Under the pieces are notes generated by a model. That model made no database searches. It saw nothing but the letters and a program-made list of their open reading frames with translations, and had not been told where the DNA came from. Made by a program: the position numbers and the translations under genes. A DNA stretch of 30,388 nt. Origin: Pseudobdellovibrionaceae bacterium. GTDB taxonomy: Bacteria > Bdellovibrionota > Bdellovibrionia > Bdellovibrionales > Bdellovibrionaceae. The DNA is taken from assembly GCA_041288045.1 (NCBI GenBank), contig JBGGMM010000012.1, positions 1 through 30,388 on the forward strand. The letters run 5' to 3'. Below, piece by piece: positions 17,987 to 30,388 of this stretch. Within the stretch, counting starts at the first letter, position 1; each line of letters opens with the position of its first letter.

Positions 17987-19663
17987 ATGTCTCAAGATAT
18001 TATCTATACAATGAAGGGTGTCTCCAAAGTTTATCCTCCGAACCGATTTGTTCTGAAGGACATTTACTTGTCCTACTTTTACGGAGCCAAAATCGGAGTT
18101 CTGGGGCTCAATGGAGCTGGCAAATCAACTCTGCTAAAAATCATGGCGGGAGTCGATAAAGATTTTATCGGCGAAGCTTTTCCAGCTCGCGCTTTGAAGG
18201 TCGGGTTTCTGGAGCAGGAACCTCAGCTGGACACCAAACTGACGGTCAAAGAAAATATTTTCTCCGGAATGGGCGAGCTTCCAAAGCTCATGCAAGAATT
18301 CAACAAGATCAATGACAAGTTCAATGATCCTGATCTGGATCCGGCCGAAATGGAAAAGCTGATTGAAAAACAAGCTCAGCTTCAGGAAAAAATCGAAGCC
18401 CTGAACGGTTGGGATATTGACCAGGTCATCGATAAAGCCATGGATGCTCTTCGCTGTCCGGATGGAGATTTGCCTGTCACCAATCTTTCGGGTGGGGAAA
18501 AGCGCCGCGTGGCACTTTGCCGCTTGCTTCTCTCGAACCCAGATATCCTGCTTTTGGATGAGCCGACGAATCACTTGGATGCCGAAAGCGTCCTGTGGCT
18601 GGAGCAATTTCTGGCTCGCTTTCCAGGCACTGTCATTGCCGTCACTCACGATCGTTATTTTCTCGACAATGTTGCCGGTTGGATTTTGGAACTGGATCGG
18701 GGAGAAGGCATCCCGTGGAAAGGCAATTACTCGTCTTGGCTCGAACAAAAAGACAAGCGCCTGCACCACGAGCAGCGCACCGAGGAGCGCAGGGCGAAAA
18801 CCCTGGAGCGGGAGCTTGAGTGGATCCGCATGGCGCCTCGTGCCCGTCAGGCCAAGAGCAAGGCCCGCATTTCCAATTACGAAAACCTGATCAAAGAGCC
18901 CACAGCTGAAAAAATGCAAGAGCTTTCCATTTACATCCCGCCAGGCCCCCGCTTGGGTGATGTGGTGGTCGAAGCCAAAAATGTCCGTAAGGCTTATGGC
19001 GAAAAGCTGCTTTTTGAAAATATGAATTTTTCAATTCCTAAGGGCGCCATCGTCGGTGTCATTGGACCGAACGGAGCTGGTAAAACCACTTTGGTTCGAA
19101 TGATCACCGGCAAGGAAAAGCCAGATTCTGGCGAATTCAACGTGGGATCCACAGTGAAAATGGCCTATGTGGACCAATCCCGAGAGACTTTGGATCCGAA
19201 CAAGTCGGTCTTTGATGAGCTCTCTGAAGGTCAGGACCTTATCCGTCTTGGCAATCGCGAAGTCCCAGCCCGCCAGTATGTCTCCTGGTACAATTTCAGC
19301 GGTGAAGGCCAACAGAAAAAAGTAGGAGCCCTCTCCGGCGGCGAACGCAATCGCGTGAACATGGCCAAAATCCTCAAGCAGGGCGGAAACCTTTTGCTTT
19401 TGGATGAACCCACCAACGACTTGGATGTGAACACCATGCGAGCGCTCGAAGAGGCCTTGCTGGAGTTCGGCGGCTCTGCCATCGTCATCTCCCATGATCG
19501 CTGGTTCTTGGATCGTATCTGCACTCACATCCTAGCTTTCGAAGGCGACTCTCAAGTCTATTTCTACAACGGCAACTTTAGCGAATACGAAGAAGACAAG
19601 AAAAAGCGCCTCGGCGAAGAAGCCGCCCAACCCACCCGAATCCGCTACCGCCCTCTGCATTAA
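17987..19663 (+). CDS. ettA: Energy-dependent translational throttle protein (ABC-F)
   Basis: Two ABC domains (GLNGAGKST, GPNGAGKTT; LSGGE twice; LLDEPTN twice) and the linker ELEWIRMAPRARQAKSKARI. ATG at 17987 (MSQDIIYTM). Confidence 0.96.
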   Translation: MSQDIIYTMKGVSKVYPPNRFVLKDIYLSYFYGAKIGVLGLNGAGKSTLLKIMAGVDKDFIGEAFPARALKVGFLEQEPQLDTKLTVKENIFSGMGELPKLMQEFNKINDKFNDPDLDPAEMEKLIEKQAQLQEKIEALNGWDIDQVIDKAMDALRCPDGDLPVTNLSGGEKRRVALCRLLLSNPDILLLDEPTNHLDAESVLWLEQFLARFPGTVIAVTHDRYFLDNVAGWILELDRGEGIPWKGNYSSWLEQKDKRLHHEQRTEERRAKTLERELEWIRMAPRARQAKSKARISNYENLIKEPTAEKMQELSIYIPPGPRLGDVVVEAKNVRKAYGEKLLFENMNFSIPKGAIVGVIGPNGAGKTTLVRMITGKEKPDSGEFNVGSTVKMAYVDQSRETLDPNKSVFDELSEGQDLIRLGNREVPARQYVSWYNFSGEGQQKKVGALSGGERNRVNMAKILKQGGNLLLLDEPTNDLDVNTMRALEEALLEFGGSAIVISHDRWFLDRICTHILAFEGDSQVYFYNGNFSEYEEDKKKRLGEEAAQPTRIRYRPLH

Positions 19664-20151
19664 TTTTGCGATCCTTTCCGGCGGGCCCAGCCTTGGGCTC
19701 GTCGAAATTTCGGATCCTCCATCAGCTGATTTGCAATTCGAGCCAAAACCATGGGTTTGATCTGCGAACTTCGCATTCGTTTCTGGTAACTCTGCAGGGC
19801 ATAAGGAAGAATTTGTCTCCACATCTGGAGAGATAATGGCATTTGCGATTTAGGACGAATTCCATAAACCAATTCACACCCCAAAGCTTCAGCCATTTTT
19901 TCAAGAGTCTGCAGCGAAATCTTCTTGGCTGTCTCGCTTTTTTCAAGAGCTGCATAGGTTGCTTTGTGAACCTCGGCTTTTTTTGCAGCCTGGGAAATAG
20001 AAATTTCCTTGGATTCCCGAATTGTCCTGAGCCAATCCGAAATTAAATTTTGGGATGGTATAGTGAGAAAAGGCTCGACTCTTTCATCTAAATTCGCTCG
20101 GGCTTGAAGTTGTCTCCAAATCCAATAAGCCTTCTTAACTTCTCTTTCCAT
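19660..20151 (-). CDS. XRE-HTH protein resembling 'mobile mystery protein A'
   Basis: WLRTIRESKEISISQAAKKAEVHKATYAALEKSETAKKISLQTLEKMAEALGCELVYGIRPK follows the W-I-R..IR...E-(K)-SE....TL.TL..AAEAL.C..VY...P pattern of that family. ATG at 20151, with an alternative start at 20172. Confidence 0.72.
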   Translation of the reverse strand: MEREVKKAYWIWRQLQARANLDERVEPFLTIPSQNLISDWLRTIRESKEISISQAAKKAEVHKATYAALEKSETAKKISLQTLEKMAEALGCELVYGIRPKSQMPLSLQMWRQILPYALQSYQKRMRSSQIKPMVLARIANQLMEDPKFRRAQGWARRKGSQN

Positions 20152-20254
20152 CGGCGCTCCTGTGGTACTCACTTTATCGTCTGTCTATGGGCAGACGATA
20201 CTTAGAGTGTGCAATCAGGCTTCAAGAATCTGACCAAGTTCCAATGCATTCAGT

Positions 20255-24372: not shown

Positions 24373-25152
24373 ATGGATTTTCTTTCGCAATTTCAGCTGA
24401 AGGGGCGACGGGCCCTCGTCTGTGGCGCGTCTCAAGGGATCGGGGAAGCAACGGCTCGAATTCTGGCTCAATTGGGCGCCGAAGTCGTTTTGCTCTCAAG
24501 GCGCGCTGAAAGTCTTCAGAAGTTAAAGTCCGAACTGCCAGGTCAGGGTCATCAGATTTTGGCTGTGGATTTAAGCTCGACAGCCGAACTGGAAAAAGCT
24601 CTGCAGCCTCTTTTACCTTTGCACATTGTGGTGAACAATGCCGGTGGTCCCAAAGCCGGGCCACTTCTTAAGGCGACGGATGTTGAAATTCTTGAAGCCA
24701 TGAAAACTCATTTGCTGGCTTCGCAAAAAATTGCACAACTGACGGTGCCTGGAATGCAGAAGGCAGGTTATGGCCGCTTCATCAATATCATTTCGACTTC
24801 GGTGAAAGCTCCCATTCCAAATTTAGGTGTTTCCAATACGGTTCGAGGGGCCATGGCCAATTGGGCGAAGAGCTTGGCCCATGAGCTGGGACCATTGGGA
24901 ATTACTGTGAATAATGTGCTTCCGGGTTATACAAAAACGCCGCGCTTTGAAACGCTTCGAAAAGCAGCCTCAGAGAAAAGCAAAGTTCCCGAGTCTCAAA
25001 TCGAAGATCAATGGAAATCCAGCATTCCGCTCTCTCGGTTTGCTGAGCCCTTCGAAGTGGCCAGTGCGGTTGCTTTTCTGGCAAGCCCAGCGGCTGGTTA
25101 TATTTCTGGAATTAATTTGCCGGTCGATGGGGGCAGGACGCCGAATTTATGA
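24373..25152 (+). CDS. SDR family oxidoreductase (FabG-like, atypical catalytic motif)
   Basis: CGASQGIG, VNNAGGP, GRFINIISTSVK, LGVSNTVR in place of YxxxK, VNNVLPG, VDGG. Confidence 0.9.
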   Translation: MDFLSQFQLKGRRALVCGASQGIGEATARILAQLGAEVVLLSRRAESLQKLKSELPGQGHQILAVDLSSTAELEKALQPLLPLHIVVNNAGGPKAGPLLKATDVEILEAMKTHLLASQKIAQLTVPGMQKAGYGRFINIISTSVKAPIPNLGVSNTVRGAMANWAKSLAHELGPLGITVNNVLPGYTKTPRFETLRKAASEKSKVPESQIEDQWKSSIPLSRFAEPFEVASAVAFLASPAAGYISGINLPVDGGRTPNL

Positions 25153-26348
25153 AATTCGATCTTTTTCTTTCCATCTGCCAAACTGAAGTGAATGGTTACA
25201 CTCCAAGTGAGAAGCAAATGTTTCTCAATTTCTTTGATCAAGTGAAGTTGGCAGATCAGTTGGGTTTTGGAACGGCTTGGGTGGCTGAAACGCATTTGTC
25301 CTGTCAAGTGCAAAAAGAAAATCCCTCAGCTGTCATTCCTGAGTTCAAAGGCGAAATTGGCCTGAACACCGACATTCTGCAAATGGCTCACAAAGTTTTT
25401 GCAGTGACAAAAAATATTCATGTGGGATCCGCCATTCGCAATATCATCTGCAATGGCGGTCCTTTGGCTCATGCTGAAGCTGTTAAAACTTTTCTGACTT
25501 TGCATGGGCTCAACCCCGGAGAAAAAAGAAAATTGCATCTGGGATTTGCCGCCGGGAGATTTCCCTTTTCAAATACGCCTTATGGTTTTTATCCAAAGAC
25601 TGAGCTTGAGAAAAAAGCTTGGGATGTGGTGAAGAATAAGTACTTTCAAGAAGCCACCGAAATTTTCTTAAGAACTTTGCAAGGCGAAAAGTTGTCTTCG
25701 AAAGAAATTTCAGATCGCTTTTTGCAAGAGTCCGATTTCCGCGACGCCAAGACTTGGAAAGAATGCTGGGATCTGGCTGAAAGGGAAAATCGCATTCAAG
25801 GTCAGCAAATCCGCTTGGATCATCACTGGAATTTTGAAAAAGTAGGGATTTTGCCATTTGAAGCTCCGCTTGAGTTTTTGGATTTGACAATTGGCAGCCA
25901 CGATCCAGAGACACAGAAGCTTGCCAATCAGATTTGTCCTGTCGGAGTTTTCAACCTTTCCATCACTCCTCCGCAAGTCATTGAAGAGACTCATCAAAGA
26001 ATGCAGTCTGTGTACAATCGCAAAGGGGGAGCTTGGCGACGGGATCTGATGCCAAGAACTTTGCTTTTGTTTATTGATGAGATTTCGTCAAAAGCCCGTG
26101 AAGCTTCGCAAAAAGCGTGGGAGAATTATTGGCGAGCGATGGAAGGGACCTTGGACCCGAAAAAAGTTCAATCTGCTGTTGAAAACACAATCGCTGGAAG
26201 TCCGGGAGAAGTCCTTGAAAAAATCCAGCAGAAGTACAATCCGGCAGATCGTTTGATGTTGTGGTTTGACTTTAATAATCACGACAGTGAACAAGTGAAA
26301 AAAGCCATGACGACTTTTATGGAAAAAGTAGCACCAAAGTTGATGTAG
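25149..26348 (+). CDS. Luciferase-like (LLM class) flavin-dependent oxidoreductase
   Basis: MKFDLF, DQVKLADQLGFGTAWVAETH, TKNIHVGSAI, LHLGFAAG, IAGSPGEVLEKI. ATGA overlap with the upstream SDR. Confidence 0.88.
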   Translation: MKFDLFLSICQTEVNGYTPSEKQMFLNFFDQVKLADQLGFGTAWVAETHLSCQVQKENPSAVIPEFKGEIGLNTDILQMAHKVFAVTKNIHVGSAIRNIICNGGPLAHAEAVKTFLTLHGLNPGEKRKLHLGFAAGRFPFSNTPYGFYPKTELEKKAWDVVKNKYFQEATEIFLRTLQGEKLSSKEISDRFLQESDFRDAKTWKECWDLAERENRIQGQQIRLDHHWNFEKVGILPFEAPLEFLDLTIGSHDPETQKLANQICPVGVFNLSITPPQVIEETHQRMQSVYNRKGGAWRRDLMPRTLLLFIDEISSKAREASQKAWENYWRAMEGTLDPKKVQSAVENTIAGSPGEVLEKIQQKYNPADRLMLWFDFNNHDSEQVKKAMTTFMEKVAPKLM

Positions 26349-26361
26349 TGGAGGGGGCTTT

Positions 26362-26655
26362 ATGATTGCATTTCGTTACCTGGCTCAATTTTTAAAAACA
26401 AAGAGACTGGAAGAGGGGTTGACCCAAGCCGAAGTGGCAGATGCCATTGGCGGGATTCACAGCCAGTTTGTTTCCAACTGGGAGAGGGGAGTGAGTTCTC
26501 CGCCCGGGTACTGCATTCAGAAATTGATTGAAGTGCTGCATTTAAATCGTGAAGAGCTGGTGAGAGCCATGCTTCAGGATTCAAAAGCGGTCATTGAAGC
26601 CAAGGTCTATCCGAAAAAAGCGAAAGCTCGGCAGAAAACAAGTAAGAGAGGATAA
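26362..26655 (+). CDS. XRE-family HTH regulator (copy 1)
   Basis: LKTKRLEEGLTQAEVADAIGGIHSQFVSNWERGVSSP. GGAGGGGG RBS. Confidence 0.92.
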   Translation: MIAFRYLAQFLKTKRLEEGLTQAEVADAIGGIHSQFVSNWERGVSSPPGYCIQKLIEVLHLNREELVRAMLQDSKAVIEAKVYPKKAKARQKTSKRG

Positions 26656-26657
26656 AA

Positions 26658-27401
26658 GTGTCTGATGTTTTGAGAGCTTCAGGATTGATTCTTGAAACCC
26701 CTTTAGAAGCTTCGATTGTTCAATCACTTGAGAGAGTGGCATCGTTGATTCGCGGGCGTGGATACCCTTGTCAGGCTTCGTCCAAGCCAGCTTTGGTTCG
26801 ATTGCCAATGCTTTCATCAGAGCAAAAACATCAGGTCCTTCATCAGCTTCAAGTCTTGGAGCAAATTATTTTTGCCAAAGAGCCGGAGGCTCCGCCGGTC
26901 GAAAAGGGCGAGCATTCAGAGAAAAACATCGTCGAGCAGGCTCTGGATTTTTACAATCTCGAGATTCGCGATGATTTTTGGAGTCGGGTTAAATCCAATG
27001 AAGTGATCGAGATTTACAACCAAAATCAGATCCAGATTTTTCGAACTCTCAATTTCTTCAATTACTGTGGCTATTCACTTTTGGATCTTCTCACCAATGA
27101 ATGGTACACTCTTTGGCAGCGGCCCTCGACCATTCTTGAAGCTTTAAAGACAAAAGCCGAAGAGGTCTTTTCTGGTGTCACTTCAGGGGCTCAAGCTTTG
27201 AATCTTTCCAATCATCTTGTTCTTGAAATTTTCAATTCTGAGAAAGATGAATTCTTTTTGCCACGCTCGATGTTGATTGAGTTTGGAATTCTTTGTCCGC
27301 TTTATCGGAGAGATTTGCCGATCGTTCAAGGCGCTTTGATCACTTCGTCTGTTTCGAATCTGACGATTGGCAAAGAAACAAATCGAATGGCCGTTTTATA
27401 A
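26658..27401 (+). CDS. Stand-alone PAS-like domain protein (copy 1)
   Basis: VIEIYNQNQIQIFRTLNFFNYCGYSLLDLLTNEWYTLWQR fits the PAS A-beta/B-beta..F..GYS..EL pattern. GTG start 2 nt after the XRE stop. No recognisable output domain. Confidence 0.62.
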   Translation: MSDVLRASGLILETPLEASIVQSLERVASLIRGRGYPCQASSKPALVRLPMLSSEQKHQVLHQLQVLEQIIFAKEPEAPPVEKGEHSEKNIVEQALDFYNLEIRDDFWSRVKSNEVIEIYNQNQIQIFRTLNFFNYCGYSLLDLLTNEWYTLWQRPSTILEALKTKAEEVFSGVTSGAQALNLSNHLVLEIFNSEKDEFFLPRSMLIEFGILCPLYRRDLPIVQGALITSSVSNLTIGKETNRMAVL

Positions 27402-27493
27402 ACAAATTTCTTTTTTAGTCTTGTCTGCTGTTAAATTTCAGGAGAAAATGGTTTTTCATCTACAGAGTGAGAATTGAAATTATTGAGGTTGTT

Positions 27494-27778
27494 ATGGCAG
27501 AATTTCATCACTTAGGCGCCTATCTAAAACAAAAAAGAACTGATGCTGGTTACACCCAAGTGGAGCTAGCTGAAAAGCTGGGTGATATTCACAGCCAGTT
27601 TGTCTCCAATTGGGAGCGTGGACTTTGTGCTCCTCCCGGGCACAGTTTGCCAAGGCTTGTGGATATTTTAAAGCTCAGCCGAGAGAGACTGGTTGAGGTC
27701 ATGGTTCAGGATTCTCGGGCTGGAATCATGGCCAAAATCTATAAGAAAAAAGCTAAATCCAACAAGAAGACAGCTTAG
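27494..27778 (+). CDS. XRE-family HTH regulator (copy 2)
   Basis: LKQKRTDAGYTQVELAEKLGDIHSQFVSNWERGLCAP. GAGG RBS before the ATG at 27494. About half its residues are identical to copy 1 by manual alignment. Confidence 0.92.
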   Translation: MAEFHHLGAYLKQKRTDAGYTQVELAEKLGDIHSQFVSNWERGLCAPPGHSLPRLVDILKLSRERLVEVMVQDSRAGIMAKIYKKKAKSNKKTA

Positions 27779-27785
27779 TCGATTC

Positions 27786-27800
27786 TTTTGACAGTCAAAA
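27786..27800. promoter_or_regulatory. Perfect palindrome TTTTGAC-A-GTCAAAA containing a TTGACA hexamer; candidate operator
   Basis: Read directly from the sequence, just after the XRE copy 2 stop codon. No well-spaced consensus -10 was found. Confidence 0.45.
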
Positions 27801-27821
27801 TTTTCCTAAAAAATAGGCAGG

Positions 27822-27876
27822 AAGCAGGATTTCCTGCTTTTGGAGGCGGCTTTTCCAGAAGCCCTCTTCATTTTTT
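27822..27876 (+). terminator. Two hairpins between XRE copy 2 and PAS copy 2; possible terminator/attenuator
   Basis: AAGCAGGA-TT-TCCTGCTT (27822-27839), then an imperfect GAG..GGCTT/AAGCC-CTC stem followed by TTCATTTTTT. Confidence 0.45.
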
Positions 27877-27902
27877 AATTAAAATCGGTTAGCTTCCGGT
27901 CC

Positions 27903-28481
27903 ATGACGAATCTCGATTATCAGAAAATTGGCTTGAGCCAGGGCTACGTGATCCGCTTGGGTCAACCAGCTCGCCAGTTGGTTCATAGGCTCCTTGATGA
28001 GCAGCAGCCAAAAGCGGATCAAGATCCCTGGTCGGATCTTCCGCCTTCCACAGAGCTTTTCGTGCGTCGAGTATTTAAAGTGGGCCGCCTGAAGGTCGCT
28101 TCTTCCTTTTGGGAAACACTGAAAGACAATTATGGCTTTGAGCTTTGGAGTTCAGAACTTGAATATGTGGTGGGTTGCGGGAAGTTTCTGTCTTTGACCA
28201 GCTACAGCCAAGAGGAGCTGCTTTCAACTCCTTGGAATCAGCTTTTTGAACGGGATCCCATTCATATCCAGCAGTTGCTCACGGCATTTCAAAGAATGAT
28301 GGAAACCCAAGAGCCTCAATTCAATGTCACGCCTTTTCATGTGGTGAAAGAAACTCAAAGCGTGAAAAAGGTTTCGTTGATGGTGGCTATTCGGGCCATC
28401 TATCCTTTTTACTTTGAGGAAATGCCAAATACTCCAGCGGGCGCTGTGGCCCTCACAGAATTTAAGCCGCTTTCTTCTTAG
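27903..28481 (+). CDS. Stand-alone PAS-like domain protein (copy 2)
   Basis: FWETLKDNYGFELWSSELEYVVGCGKFLSLTSYSQEELLSTPWNQLFER aligns without gaps to the core of copy 1 (FW..K.N...E...F...YS..LL...W..L..R; later HVVKE versus HLVLE). Confidence 0.62.
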   Translation: MTNLDYQKIGLSQGYVIRLGQPARQLVHRLLDEQQPKADQDPWSDLPPSTELFVRRVFKVGRLKVASSFWETLKDNYGFELWSSELEYVVGCGKFLSLTSYSQEELLSTPWNQLFERDPIHIQQLLTAFQRMMETQEPQFNVTPFHVVKETQSVKKVSLMVAIRAIYPFYFEEMPNTPAGAVALTEFKPLSS

Positions 28482-29085
28482 AATGTGTTTGAACTGATCC
28501 CAAGGCGTGCAGATCCTGCAGCATCGCTTCGTAGGATCGAGCCGACATTTTGAGATTTTCAACAATCGCTTTTTGGTCGCCCGGTGGCAGGCCAGAAATA
28601 ATTTGATAAGCGCTTTCCAAATGACCTTCGTCTTCTTCGGCGTGCAATTTTAAAAATGTCAGGGCTTTGGTTGTTGTCGAGGCCTTTGCCAAGGTCTCTT
28701 TGCCAAATGTGATGGCCAGAGCTTCGAGAAAAAGAATGTAGCCCAAAAAGCTCACTGGATTGACGTGTTCAATTTGATAGTACTGTGAGCCGTAAAAAGC
28801 CCGGGTGGCCGGAAGCTCTGCTTCCAGGGGGCGGCCCAGAATTTTTAAGTCATTGAGGAGCATTCGATCATGACCTTTTTCTTCGGCCAAGTGTTCAATG
28901 CAGCGACGGTGATAGGTCGGGTTGTCGATGCTTCGTCCACAAGACAATGCGAGCATCGGGGTCGAGTGGCGGACAATGTAATACTGCTGCGAAAGCCAGT
29001 GGCCATACATCACAGCGTCCCGCCAAGGGTAATTCAAAATCAGAGGCGAAATTTCAACCATGAGCTGTTCGACTGTTTTCTTCAT
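28462..29085 (-). CDS. Heme-oxygenase-like diiron enzyme (HDO; iron-containing redox enzyme / CADD-TenA-PqqC fold)
   Basis: Candidate ligands E68/E69-x-G-H72 (HLAEEKGH), E121 (ILFLEAL) and H148-x3-D152-x2-H155 (LHAEEDEGH). All-helical composition. Confidence 0.85.
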   Translation of the reverse strand: MKKTVEQLMVEISPLILNYPWRDAVMYGHWLSQQYYIVRHSTPMLALSCGRSIDNPTYHRRCIEHLAEEKGHDRMLLNDLKILGRPLEAELPATRAFYGSQYYQIEHVNPVSFLGYILFLEALAITFGKETLAKASTTTKALTFLKLHAEEDEGHLESAYQIISGLPPGDQKAIVENLKMSARSYEAMLQDLHALGSVQTHSKKKAA

Positions 29086-29762
29086 GCACTTTTCCTTTGC
29101 GAGGGAAATGGAATCACTGATGCCTCTTTGACAAGCGAAGAGTGATTTTCCTTTTGCGTCCAGAGCTCATCAATCAGACTTTGGACTTTCTGCAGGGGAT
29201 GCCCGTGAAGTTCCGAAGTTTTAGCGAACATCACTTTGCAGACAATTCCATGTCGGTTGATTTCTGCGTAAGGTTGAGGTCCATATTTGCCACCAATCTT
29301 ATCGGCTTTCATGTCGACTCGCGAGTATCCCATCACAGCCGTGTAAGGAGTGTAAGTGGCCAGTTTCAGAGTCAAACCCATAATCAAATCCGCCGGCTGG
29401 ATTTTAGTAAATTTTCCTCTTTGATTGGGATGTACAGTCACCCATTCGATGGTCATGACTTGCTCTTTTTGATTCTGCAGGCGCTTTTTGAAAGCTTCAG
29501 GGGCTGGTTCGAAATAGCTGAGATCCAAAACGCCAGCTAATTGAGAATTCATATTGTTGAGGAGGCTAAAGGCAATTGGATTTTGCTCTCCATCATGAAG
29601 AACCGAAAGCATTTTGCAGCGATAGAAGTAATCAGCAGAAAGGGTCTCGTGCGCTTCCGTCAAAATGGGTTCATAGACTTCTTTCCAGGTCTGAAAGCAA
29701 TGCGAAACCAATGTCGTTTTGGCTGTGGGGACATCGGCAAGTGAAATGATTTCGTACTTCAT
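29082..29762 (-). CDS. GNAT-fold acyltransferase-like protein (LuxI/FeeM-like)
   Basis: Motif A-like IEWVTVHPNQRG followed by the helix ADLIMGL. N-terminal CFQTWKEVY...SADYFYR and a beta hairpin recall acyl-HSL / N-acyl amino acid synthases. AAGGGG RBS. ATGA overlap with the HDO gene. Confidence 0.6.
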   Translation of the reverse strand: MKYEIISLADVPTAKTTLVSHCFQTWKEVYEPILTEAHETLSADYFYRCKMLSVLHDGEQNPIAFSLLNNMNSQLAGVLDLSYFEPAPEAFKKRLQNQKEQVMTIEWVTVHPNQRGKFTKIQPADLIMGLTLKLATYTPYTAVMGYSRVDMKADKIGGKYGPQPYAEINRHGIVCKVMFAKTSELHGHPLQKVQSLIDELWTQKENHSSLVKEASVIPFPSQRKSA

Positions 29763-29843
29763 GTTTCCCCTTTTTCTAAATGAGCCAGTATTTATCCATT
29801 CGGAGCCGTTTCGGAAAACTTAAGAAACTTTTTGCCAAGCCAA

Positions 29844-29872
29844 TTTATAGATTTAAACTTGTTTATAGATTT
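29844..29872. promoter_or_regulatory. 11-bp direct repeat TTTATAGATTT x2 upstream of the GNAT-HDO operon
   Basis: Exact copies at 29844-29854 and 29862-29872, adjacent to TTGCAA at 29873-29878. Confidence 0.4.
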
Positions 29873-30008
29873 TTGCAATTTAGCAGGAATTTTCGTCTGA
29901 ATCTGCGACATTTTCAGGCCCAGATTGAAACACTTTTATCTTGTCATGAGACTGATCTTTAGACTTGGTCTCGAGCGCGGCGGTGACGAGGGTAAGCGTC
30001 GATTTGTC

Positions 30009-30050
30009 CGTCCATGCGATGGCTCCCAGACGGCCATCCGGGCCGTCTAG
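30009..30050. repeat. GC-rich REP-like hairpin element
   Basis: AGACGGCC-ATCCG-GGCCGTCT (30028-30048) preceded by a small CCAT-GCG-ATGG hairpin, within an otherwise AT-rich spacer. Single copy in this window. Confidence 0.4.
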
Positions 30051-30293
30051 CAAGTTTTTAGGAGAGGAAAAAGCGAGCGACGTTCTTAAAATTTTTTAGG
30101 GAAAAAGTTTGACATGATTTTTCGCTCTTTCATCTTGGCTAAGAGAGCAGATTTTTGTGATTTTGGATTTTCTGGAATTTTCTTTGTGATCGCTCGGAGG
30201 CGAAGGTCCTATGGCTTTTGCGATTTTGTTTTCAAGCTATTCTCTCGCTGTTTGAAAATGCTCTGAAAAAACTCGTGTTACAACACATGCACG

Positions 30294-30388
30294 ATGAAAC
30301 AAAAAACAAATTCTAATATGAAATCATTCGGTGGTGAGCTTCTTAAGGGAAAAAGAAAAACGAAAAGGCCGCTTTCCACCAAGCAGCC
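30294..30388 (+). CDS. N-terminus of a probable HUH/Y1 (IS200/RAYT-like) transposase-family protein, truncated by the window edge
   Basis: Manual translation MKQKTNSNMKSFGGELLKGKRKTKRPLSTKQP. I recall the FGG.LLK..RK..RPLS(T)K.P leader as preceding the first His strand in Bdellovibrio-type Y1_Tnp proteins. The catalytic motifs lie outside the window. Confidence 0.5.
   Translation, partial: MKQKTNSNMKSFGGELLKGKRKTKRPLSTKQ

Follow-up and report, generated by a model that had tools for sequence, protein, structure and literature searches.

The 30,388-nucleotide (nt) window analysed here (contig JBGGMM010000012.1 of assembly GCA_041288045.1, from a Pseudobdellovibrionaceae bacterium) carries six genes at 26362-29762, in which XRE1, PAS1, XRE2 and PAS2 on the forward strand face HDO and GNAT on the reverse strand. 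These genes belong to a conserved Bdellovibrionota cassette, and we consider it moderately probable that in it an acyltransferase (GNAT) and a haem-oxygenase-like diiron oxidase (HDO) make an oxidised N-acyl signal that would be read by a stand-alone PAS protein and passed on to a separately encoded XRE regulator. The gene arrangement is far beyond chance. The cassette appears to work like a synthase-receptor circuit, yet to lie outside the LuxI/LuxR, FeeM and MmyB families.

The first gene, XRE1 (26362-26655, 97 amino acids), encodes an XRE/HTH_3 regulator without a ligand-binding domain (HTH_3, E 2.5e-10) and is separated by 2 nt from PAS1 (26658-27401, 247 amino acids), a soluble protein with about 100 residues of N-terminal helices and one PAS domain. 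They are followed by a second XRE/HTH_3 regulator, XRE2 (27494-27778, 94 amino acids; HTH_3, E 2.1e-8), and by PAS2 (27903-28481, 192 amino acids), a short form of the PAS1 family, whose 3' end overlaps that of HDO by 20 nt (28462-28481). HDO (28462-29085, 207 amino acids; PF14518, E 2.8e-10) and GNAT (29082-29762, 226 amino acids), the latter an acyltransferase with a predicted LuxI/FeeM-like fold, overlap in turn by ATGA (29082-29085). The Pfam scan named both XREs and HDO; PAS2 matched only PAS_9, at E 0.05, and GNAT and PAS1 matched no family. All six genes were found at the places, strands and junctions given in an earlier sequence-only reading of this DNA, save for the start of XRE2: its frame is open from GTG 27467, and the most likely start is ATG 27494, because a GAGGT ribosome-binding site stands ahead of it and homologues start there. 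Positions 26334-30007 are matched by five contigs of one public run, with zero letter differences and two short gaps uncovered; this run is probably the source sample and hence not independent confirmation.

The GNAT profile found members in 27 of 41 relatives, in 78 of 201 genomes of the phylum and in each of the 24 good-quality genomes searched within the window's family; the named relatives are Bdellovibrio, Pseudobdellovibrionaceae and Bdellovibrionales records. Around the 39 GNAT matches in the 41 relatives, an HDO lies within 3.5 kb in 34 cases, a PAS within 3.5 kb in 34 and both in 29; for the 18 loci in these relatives that were outside profile training, the numbers are 16, 15 and 13, respectively. 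As a control, 18 weaker HDO matches of other subfamilies were inspected, and none has a GNAT or PAS near. In total, 119 GNAT loci were compared (below, L-numbers denote loci, of this set or others, G000 is the window's genome and C-numbers are contigs), 99 of which had not been used for the first profiles. These 99 new loci have HDO in 81 cases, PAS in 71, XRE in 37 and all four families in 31, the PAS and XRE profiles behind these counts having meanwhile been extended with members from the same loci; the first profiles, with a looser XRE cut-off, gave 81, 71, 45 and 36. Later-found loci that partly repeat the set were left out of the counts, and the linkage counts are descriptive because kin are not independent. 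The recurrence of GNAT, HDO, PAS and XRE together had been expected by the sequence-only reading, which in this respect was borne out.

HDO and GNAT are encoded on one strand in 94 of 98 loci and are direct neighbours in 89. The convergent synthase/receptor layout, likewise anticipated, holds in 55 of the 89 loci with a PAS, the others being co-directional (24) or divergent (10), and gene order is otherwise freely reshuffled among loci. The GNATs are mostly 12-27% identical to that of the window and reach four copies per genome. A four-gene form is carried by plasmid pBdHM1 of Bdellovibrio sp. HM001, where XRE, GNAT, HDO and PAS (BdHM001_36590, 36580, 36570 and 36560) are all annotated as 'hypothetical'.

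With a plasmid-borne copy, and with XREs that match generic HTH parts of the HipB and RmrA models in PADLOC, a toxin-antitoxin or anti-phage module, made of a GNAT toxin and an XRE antitoxin, has to be weighed. It is extremely improbable: PADLOC returned 0 families for GNAT, HDO, PAS1 and PAS2, and the GNAT is coupled to HDO and not to XRE, which is near only 37 of the 99 new GNAT loci.

The acyltransferase and the diiron oxidase

The AlphaFold2 model of GNAT has a predicted local distance difference test score (pLDDT) of 93.6. Its best structural match is the acyl-homoserine lactone (acyl-HSL) synthase RpaI (Z 15.9, root-mean-square deviation (rmsd) 3.5, 196 residues aligned; Foldseek E 7e-7), followed by a Pseudomonas acyltransferase (Z 14.9), an insect amine acyltransferase (14.6), FeeM (2g0b, 14.6), MesI (13.8) and LasI (13.6). 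In the Atlas, FeeM/GNAT clusters match at template-modelling (TM) scores of 0.6-0.7. The nearest Atlas clusters, for GNAT as for PAS1, are mostly Bdellovibrionota; outside the phylum, one look-alike cluster is mostly Myxococcota, at TM 0.80, and another mostly Actinomycetota. A sequence search among solved structures gave only weak, non-significant GNAT relatives (best E 0.019), and the fold therefore rests on models. Residues conserved in the family are W26, D44, F46, R48, Y83, R115, R148 and G161.

Neither the LuxI profile (PF00765) nor the FeeM profile (PF21926) matches any of 120 GNAT family members. PF00765 finds nothing in the window's genome at E 1 and, across the 201 genomes of the phylum, gives weak partial matches in 10, none of them in the window's family and none at cassette GNATs. 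This is consistent with a Bdellovibrionota genome survey, the available text of which reports no acyl-HSL synthase and suggests other quorum-sensing regulators (bioRxiv 10.1101/2020.11.01.364414). PF21926 does find two other genes in the window's genome and misses the cassette GNAT. These two true FeeM-family genes are L194 (G000:C18) and L195 (G000:C181); L194 has a C-terminal extension and, judged by eye from the sequence, is preceded by a nitroreductase-like gene. Judged by its model, the GNAT thus has a LuxI/FeeM-like fold without belonging to either family, because both Pfam models fail and there is no conserved counterpart of Arg104 in LasI, where the strand-4 motif is Glu101-x-Ser-Arg104-Phe (PMC9654057, in the portion containing Table 1). 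The sequence-only reading, which had called this enzyme LuxI-like, was right about the fold; the family profiles do not follow.

HDO matches PDB entry 3dde at E 4.5e-7. Its ligands E69, H72, E121, H148, D152 and H155, all six of which are kept in 99 of 99 cassette HDOs, agree with the 3-His/3-carboxylate set of the superfamily; according to the available text of the same review, HDO clusters are labile and only about a dozen HDOs have been validated (PMC13108848). Two side observations concern this family. At L192 (125-1314, reverse strand) a cassette-type HDO precedes another kind of GNAT-like gene (Acetyltransf_5, E 0.011), whose E-x-x-R motif is nearer to canonical LuxI/FeeM; a profile comparison with this possible canonical GNAT was not significant. 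L199-L201, records of a gammaproteobacterial plasmid collection, comprise a 'thermostable hemolysin', an AMP-binding protein, an iron-containing redox enzyme, a short-chain dehydrogenase/reductase (SDR) and a hypothetical protein. Their HDO matches the cassette HDO profile at E 1e-25 to 2e-34, and this cluster is read as a separate, uncharacterised HDO pathway.

PAS proteins and their XRE partners

The AlphaFold2 model of PAS1 (pLDDT 94.2) shows four N-terminal helices and a PAS domain, and no membrane segment was found in the protein. Its fold matches are nearly all PAS/LOV domains (best Z 6.5, rmsd 3.2, 104 residues aligned), in agreement with the Atlas, so the PAS assignment that could have fallen at this point is upheld; the other assignments stand as well, with HDO in PF14518, both XREs in HTH_3 and GNAT modelled as LuxI/FeeM-like. 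PAS2 is 20% identical to PAS1 (E 4e-6), shares matches with it in other genomes and by this homology is taken as a member of the PAS family. PAS1 has 841 relatives at 50% clustering, and the best 150 of them are 144-346 amino acids long, without an XRE, GNAT or HDO part; no plasmid match to PAS1 was found. A weak search revealed no fused output domain in the longer PAS proteins. One fusion to XRE does exist, at L072 (5625-6716, reverse strand), where XRE and PAS form one 364-amino-acid frame; it is the sole case in 119 loci and may be a recent stop-codon loss.

XRE1 and XRE2 are 53% identical, and XRE2 shares 71-72% identity with the XREs that occupy this site in two congeneric genomes. Of 51 PAS genes, 30 have an XRE of the cassette subfamily no more than 600 nt away, where 0.09 would be expected; the 13 PAS genes with neither GNAT nor HDO around them contribute 8 of these. 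At complete GNAT loci the XRE is present in 45 of 81 with a PAS, versus 1 of 26 without. These numbers, together with the L072 fusion, support the XRE-PAS pairing that had been proposed. In the other direction the association is looser: the XRE subfamily is broader than the cassette, and only 31 of its 101 copies adjoin a PAS.

The two PAS proteins do not seem to serve the same synthase. The nearest relatives of the window's GNAT are at L021, L022 and L100, and those of PAS2 at L021, L034 and L100 (25-26% identity, a thin margin), while the five nearest relatives of PAS1 (37-26%) all come from cassettes that carry a desaturase-family gene, a second cassette type described below. From these relationships, PAS2 is likely the cognate receptor of the HDO-GNAT product, and XRE2-PAS2-HDO-GNAT the working circuit. 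Because PAS1 groups with desaturase-type cassettes, the positional pair XRE1-PAS1 is probably an orphan receptor of that cassette class, and the proposal that both PAS modules are receptors of the window synthase probably does not hold. As a likely orphan, the pair would be either a remnant of an earlier cassette or kept for reading the signals of other strains.

The same genome holds a third XRE-PAS pair of the PAS1 type (G000:C162:3-922, reverse strand), cut by the contig end, with an XRE 64% identical to XRE2 and a PAS 38% identical to PAS1; it is likely another orphan receptor for desaturase-type signals. At G000:C241:3601-5640, two desaturase-family genes lie divergently, with identities to cassette desaturases of up to 43% and 41%; an aminotransferase-like gene is adjacent, and no GNAT or PAS adjoins them. 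No second GNAT of the family was found in the window's assembly, which is 83% complete. Across 86 loci, GNAT similarity and PAS similarity correlate with rho 0.25, against a shuffle maximum of 0.14, and the cassettes within one genome are only 15-30% identical. The correlation demonstrates joint inheritance and not co-evolution.

Exchangeable oxidase and receptor slots

Clustering of the neighbouring genes revealed a recurring fatty-acid-desaturase-family gene (PF00487, with eight invariant histidines). In the 107 complete loci the oxidase slot holds HDO only in 75, both enzymes in 12, the desaturase only in 12 and neither in 8. A desaturase-family gene is thus present in 12 of the 20 complete loci without HDO; the remaining 8 (L105, L106, L109, L110, L112, L113, L119 and L120) form a single clade of GNATs without oxidase or receptor neighbours, the second copy in genomes of a genus labelled g10, and are possible solo synthases. 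Setting this solo clade aside after the fact leaves 99 complete loci, all of them with an oxidase and 96 with a receptor.

That a desaturase-family enzyme takes the place of HDO at some loci suggests an acyl group as the substrate of the chemistry, and it bears on a different account of the locus, a protein-modification switch in which GNAT acylates XRE, PAS or another protein and the diiron HDO senses oxygen or iron. Many protein N-acetyltransferases do match the GNAT model at Z 12-13.6, and a labile cluster, as HDOs have (PMC13108848, available text), would suit a sensor. Such a switch is nevertheless very unlikely, given that replacement, a small-molecule synthase as the best and longest GNAT match, and the XRE missing at many loci.

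The second recurring group of neighbours consists of two histidine-kinase types, with either a six-to-seven-helix membrane sensor or a soluble sensor; these sensor domains and the PAS family are unrelated. In the same 107 loci the receptor slot holds PAS without kinases in 81, kinases without PAS in 15, both in 0 and neither in 11. The kinases at L135, L155, L156 and L163, beside GNAT-HDO, have a soluble N-terminal domain of about 185 amino acids without a Pfam match, which may resemble V4R/H-NOX-type sensors. Other neighbours seen were an acyl-CoA dehydrogenase beside the GNAT at four loci (L077, L085, L146 and L157) and a B12-dependent radical S-adenosylmethionine (SAM) gene (L029:6690-8390), which adjoins the GNAT of an HDO-less locus near a contig end.

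Membrane-embedded sensor kinases, desaturase-family and acyl-CoA dehydrogenase partners and the FeeM-like fold would all be at home in a pathway that makes or modifies a membrane aminolipid, with the PAS or the membrane kinase monitoring the aminolipid or its fatty-acid precursor. We regard this as decidedly unlikely, since presence in 78 of 201 genomes is unusually patchy for a structural lipid pathway, and GNATs mostly 12-27% identical, with up to four copies per genome and one on a plasmid, are unusual for it as well.

The exchange can be followed at one site in the window's genus, where SDR-LLM-XRE-PAS (LLM, luciferase-like monooxygenase) is followed by HDO-GNAT (window and L021) or by the desaturase (L030 and L185); the L030 desaturase has its GNAT, and L185 is cut by the contig end. 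An independently found metagenome locus, L197, combines a GNAT 34% identical to that of the window with a desaturase and a PAS. On a quick version of the tree, from which L169 and the second GNAT in L027 were left out, the slot swaps amount to 7-16 changes. Because the HDO and PAS/XRE slots are exchangeable, the cassette is not the fixed four-family system that the sequence-only reading had described: a desaturase-family gene replaces HDO, and sensor kinases replace PAS/XRE.

The same anatomy, with a soluble PAS, would also be expected if the enzymes made a specialised metabolite against prey or competitors, or an intracellular cue, and PAS/XRE regulated the pathway by sensing its product or precursor, a role proposed for MmyB-type regulators; population density would then not be signalled. 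The additional tailoring genes (the acyl-CoA dehydrogenase at four loci and the B12 radical-SAM gene at L029) and the related gammaproteobacterial HDOs in biosynthetic clusters with AMP ligase and SDR speak for this explanation. We judge it unlikely, though deserving of serious consideration: two small enzymes with an adjoining receptor make up 96 of 99 complete loci once the solo clade is removed, no recurring transporter or resistance gene was found among the neighbour clusters, and orphan XRE-PAS pairs and several divergent cassettes per genome fit signal diversity better.

Under the favoured explanation of an oxidised N-acyl signal, GNAT, with the fold of its model, would first move an acyl chain from acyl-acyl carrier protein or acyl-CoA to an amine such as an amino acid. 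HDO, the metal ligands of which are in place, would then use iron and O2 to desaturate or oxidatively decarboxylate this product; in most HDO-less loci the membrane desaturase-family enzyme would fill the slot, as UndB does for UndA. The cytoplasmic PAS, recognised by its fold and linked to the enzymes by position, would bind the product and switch the XRE, probably via its N-terminal helices, a contact suggested by the linkage and the one fusion. Loci without PAS usually have, in the receptor slot, a kinase with either the membrane sensor or the soluble one, and the membrane kinases in this slot suggest that the molecule leaves the cell. More tentatively, we envisage a phylum-wide quorum-sensing language, in which a divergent LuxI-fold synthase and an exchangeable oxidase may produce strain-specific oxidised N-acyl signals for split PAS/XRE or kinase receptors, and orphan receptors such as XRE1-PAS1 may listen to rival predators.

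Several results weigh against the oxidised-signal explanation. For the enzymes, the lead of RpaI over general acyltransferases is only 1.0 Z unit, and the LuxI strand-4 Arg is absent from the consensus and from the five commonest residues at positions 106-110, in a register set without superposition; the solo GNAT clade has no partner at all. On the receptor side, the fold matches of PAS1 are of intermediate strength (Foldseek best E 1.1e-3, best Z 6.5) and do not identify a ligand, and XRE is missing nearby at 36 of 81 complete PAS loci. A search for operators in the form of spaced palindromes found no shared motif and no excess in XRE loci (best z 3.3 upstream of GNAT in 53 loci with XRE and 3.9 in 67 without, 2.8 for XRE in 51 and 3.3 for PAS in 91). 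When relatedness is taken into account, the swaps do not reach significance (2 and 5 independent pairs, median p 0.5); none of the independent pairs on supported branches runs the opposite way, in tests that are underpowered. Genes beside cassettes had served to build both the sensor and the desaturase profiles. Of the 27 matches to the membrane sensor across 201 genomes, 11 are these training neighbours; at 11 other loci with the sensor, chosen independently, neither a GNAT nor an HDO was seen, and half of the strong desaturase matches in the 41 genomes (7 of 14) have neither GNAT nor PAS next to them. The membrane-sensor and desaturase families are not dedicated to the cassette. The product, its diffusion, ligand binding and the XRE-PAS contact are predictions from genes and models.

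Known systems and the surroundings of the cassette

With LuxI/LuxR systems (RpaI, LasI, MesI, TofI) the cassette shares the synthase fold, neighbouring synthase and receptor genes that converge in most cases (55 of 89), and the existence of orphan receptors and of a clade of solo synthases. It differs in a GNAT without a PF00765 match or the strand-4 Arg, in the oxidase that accompanies the synthase at every complete locus except those of the solo clade, and in a receptor made of PAS and a separate XRE, or of a kinase; LuxR is absent among the neighbours. FeeM N-acyl amino acid synthases have the same fold (2g0b, Z 14.6), but the cassette GNAT has no PF21926 match, though its genome has two true FeeM-family genes, and it is receptor-linked.

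The diffusible signal factor systems (DSF and Burkholderia DSF, BDSF) consist of RpfF with the PAS-bearing RpfR or the membrane kinase RpfC, and CqsA/CqsS was likewise compared. In these systems too a lipid-like signal is read by a cytoplasmic PAS or a polytopic membrane kinase; their synthases are unrelated to those of the cassette, the PAS of which appears to lack an output domain of its own. The RpfR PAS and phage VqmA are generic fold matches of PAS1 (Z 4.9 and 5.4).

MmyB/MltR regulators contain the same two domain types, and MltR, according to the available text, joins an XRE to a PAS-like domain and binds myristate (PMC3406030). The cassette has one fused XRE-PAS frame (1 of 119 loci) and otherwise splits the two domains into separate genes; 0 of 129 PAS members match the MmyB-type Pfam family, and MltR is not among the listed fold matches. 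UndA, an HDO, and UndB, which is desaturase-like, catalyse the same reaction (PMC11204201, available text), so that here as well an HDO and a desaturase-superfamily diiron enzyme fill one role, with 3-His/3-carboxylate ligands (PMC11204201 and PMC13108848, as far as their available texts go). Both are stand-alone enzymes acting on free fatty acids, and they are likened to the cassette by role, not by sequence closeness. The gammaproteobacterial hemolysin/AMP-ligase cluster shares a related HDO and differs in its AMP ligase and SDR, with no match to the cassette GNAT, PAS or XRE profile.

A full-text literature search, with most subscription journals and supplements outside its coverage, found no description of the cassette. 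The accessible parts of earlier papers describe other GNAT/diiron operons (PMC2922099) and a canonical myxobacterial LuxI (PMC7862692), and GNAT, quorum and Bdellovibrio go unmentioned in the available text of the HDO review (PMC13108848). The cassette, invisible to Pfam, is a concrete candidate signal system for a group without a known acyl-HSL synthase. If the favoured explanation is true, the chemistry of the signal, the reaction of the HDO and the design of the receptor, with PAS and XRE as two proteins, would all be new, and the cassette could give control over predators studied as living antibiotics. With two small soluble enzymes the cassette is easy to test, and, since the HM001 plasmid carries the four-gene form, direct tests are possible in a named isolate.

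Sequence scans gave 4 promoter-like sites against 5.9 expected and 13 terminator-like sites against 8.5 ± 2.5 expected, the XRE duplication was the only repeat found, and Rfam had no match across 26000-30388. A non-coding stretch at 29970-30310, within that range, draws similar contigs of other organisms at high depth and is possibly a conserved non-coding element. Another XRE-type gene, of 170 amino acids (19660-20172, reverse strand), belongs to a different subfamily and is unrelated to the cassette XREs. The SDR and a divergent LLM are encoded at 24373-26348 on the forward strand, overlapping by ATGA and ending 13 nt before XRE1, so they could be co-transcribed with XRE1-PAS1; the pair also precedes the cassette at L021, L030 and L185, of the same genus, and elsewhere is not part of it. 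Finally, at about 29790-29830 on the reverse strand, the window shares a short TTCTTAA...CCGA stretch with L021 and L030. The GNATs that lie about 40-70 nt downstream of it occupy one chromosomal site but belong to different clades, and the stretch may be a retained promoter.

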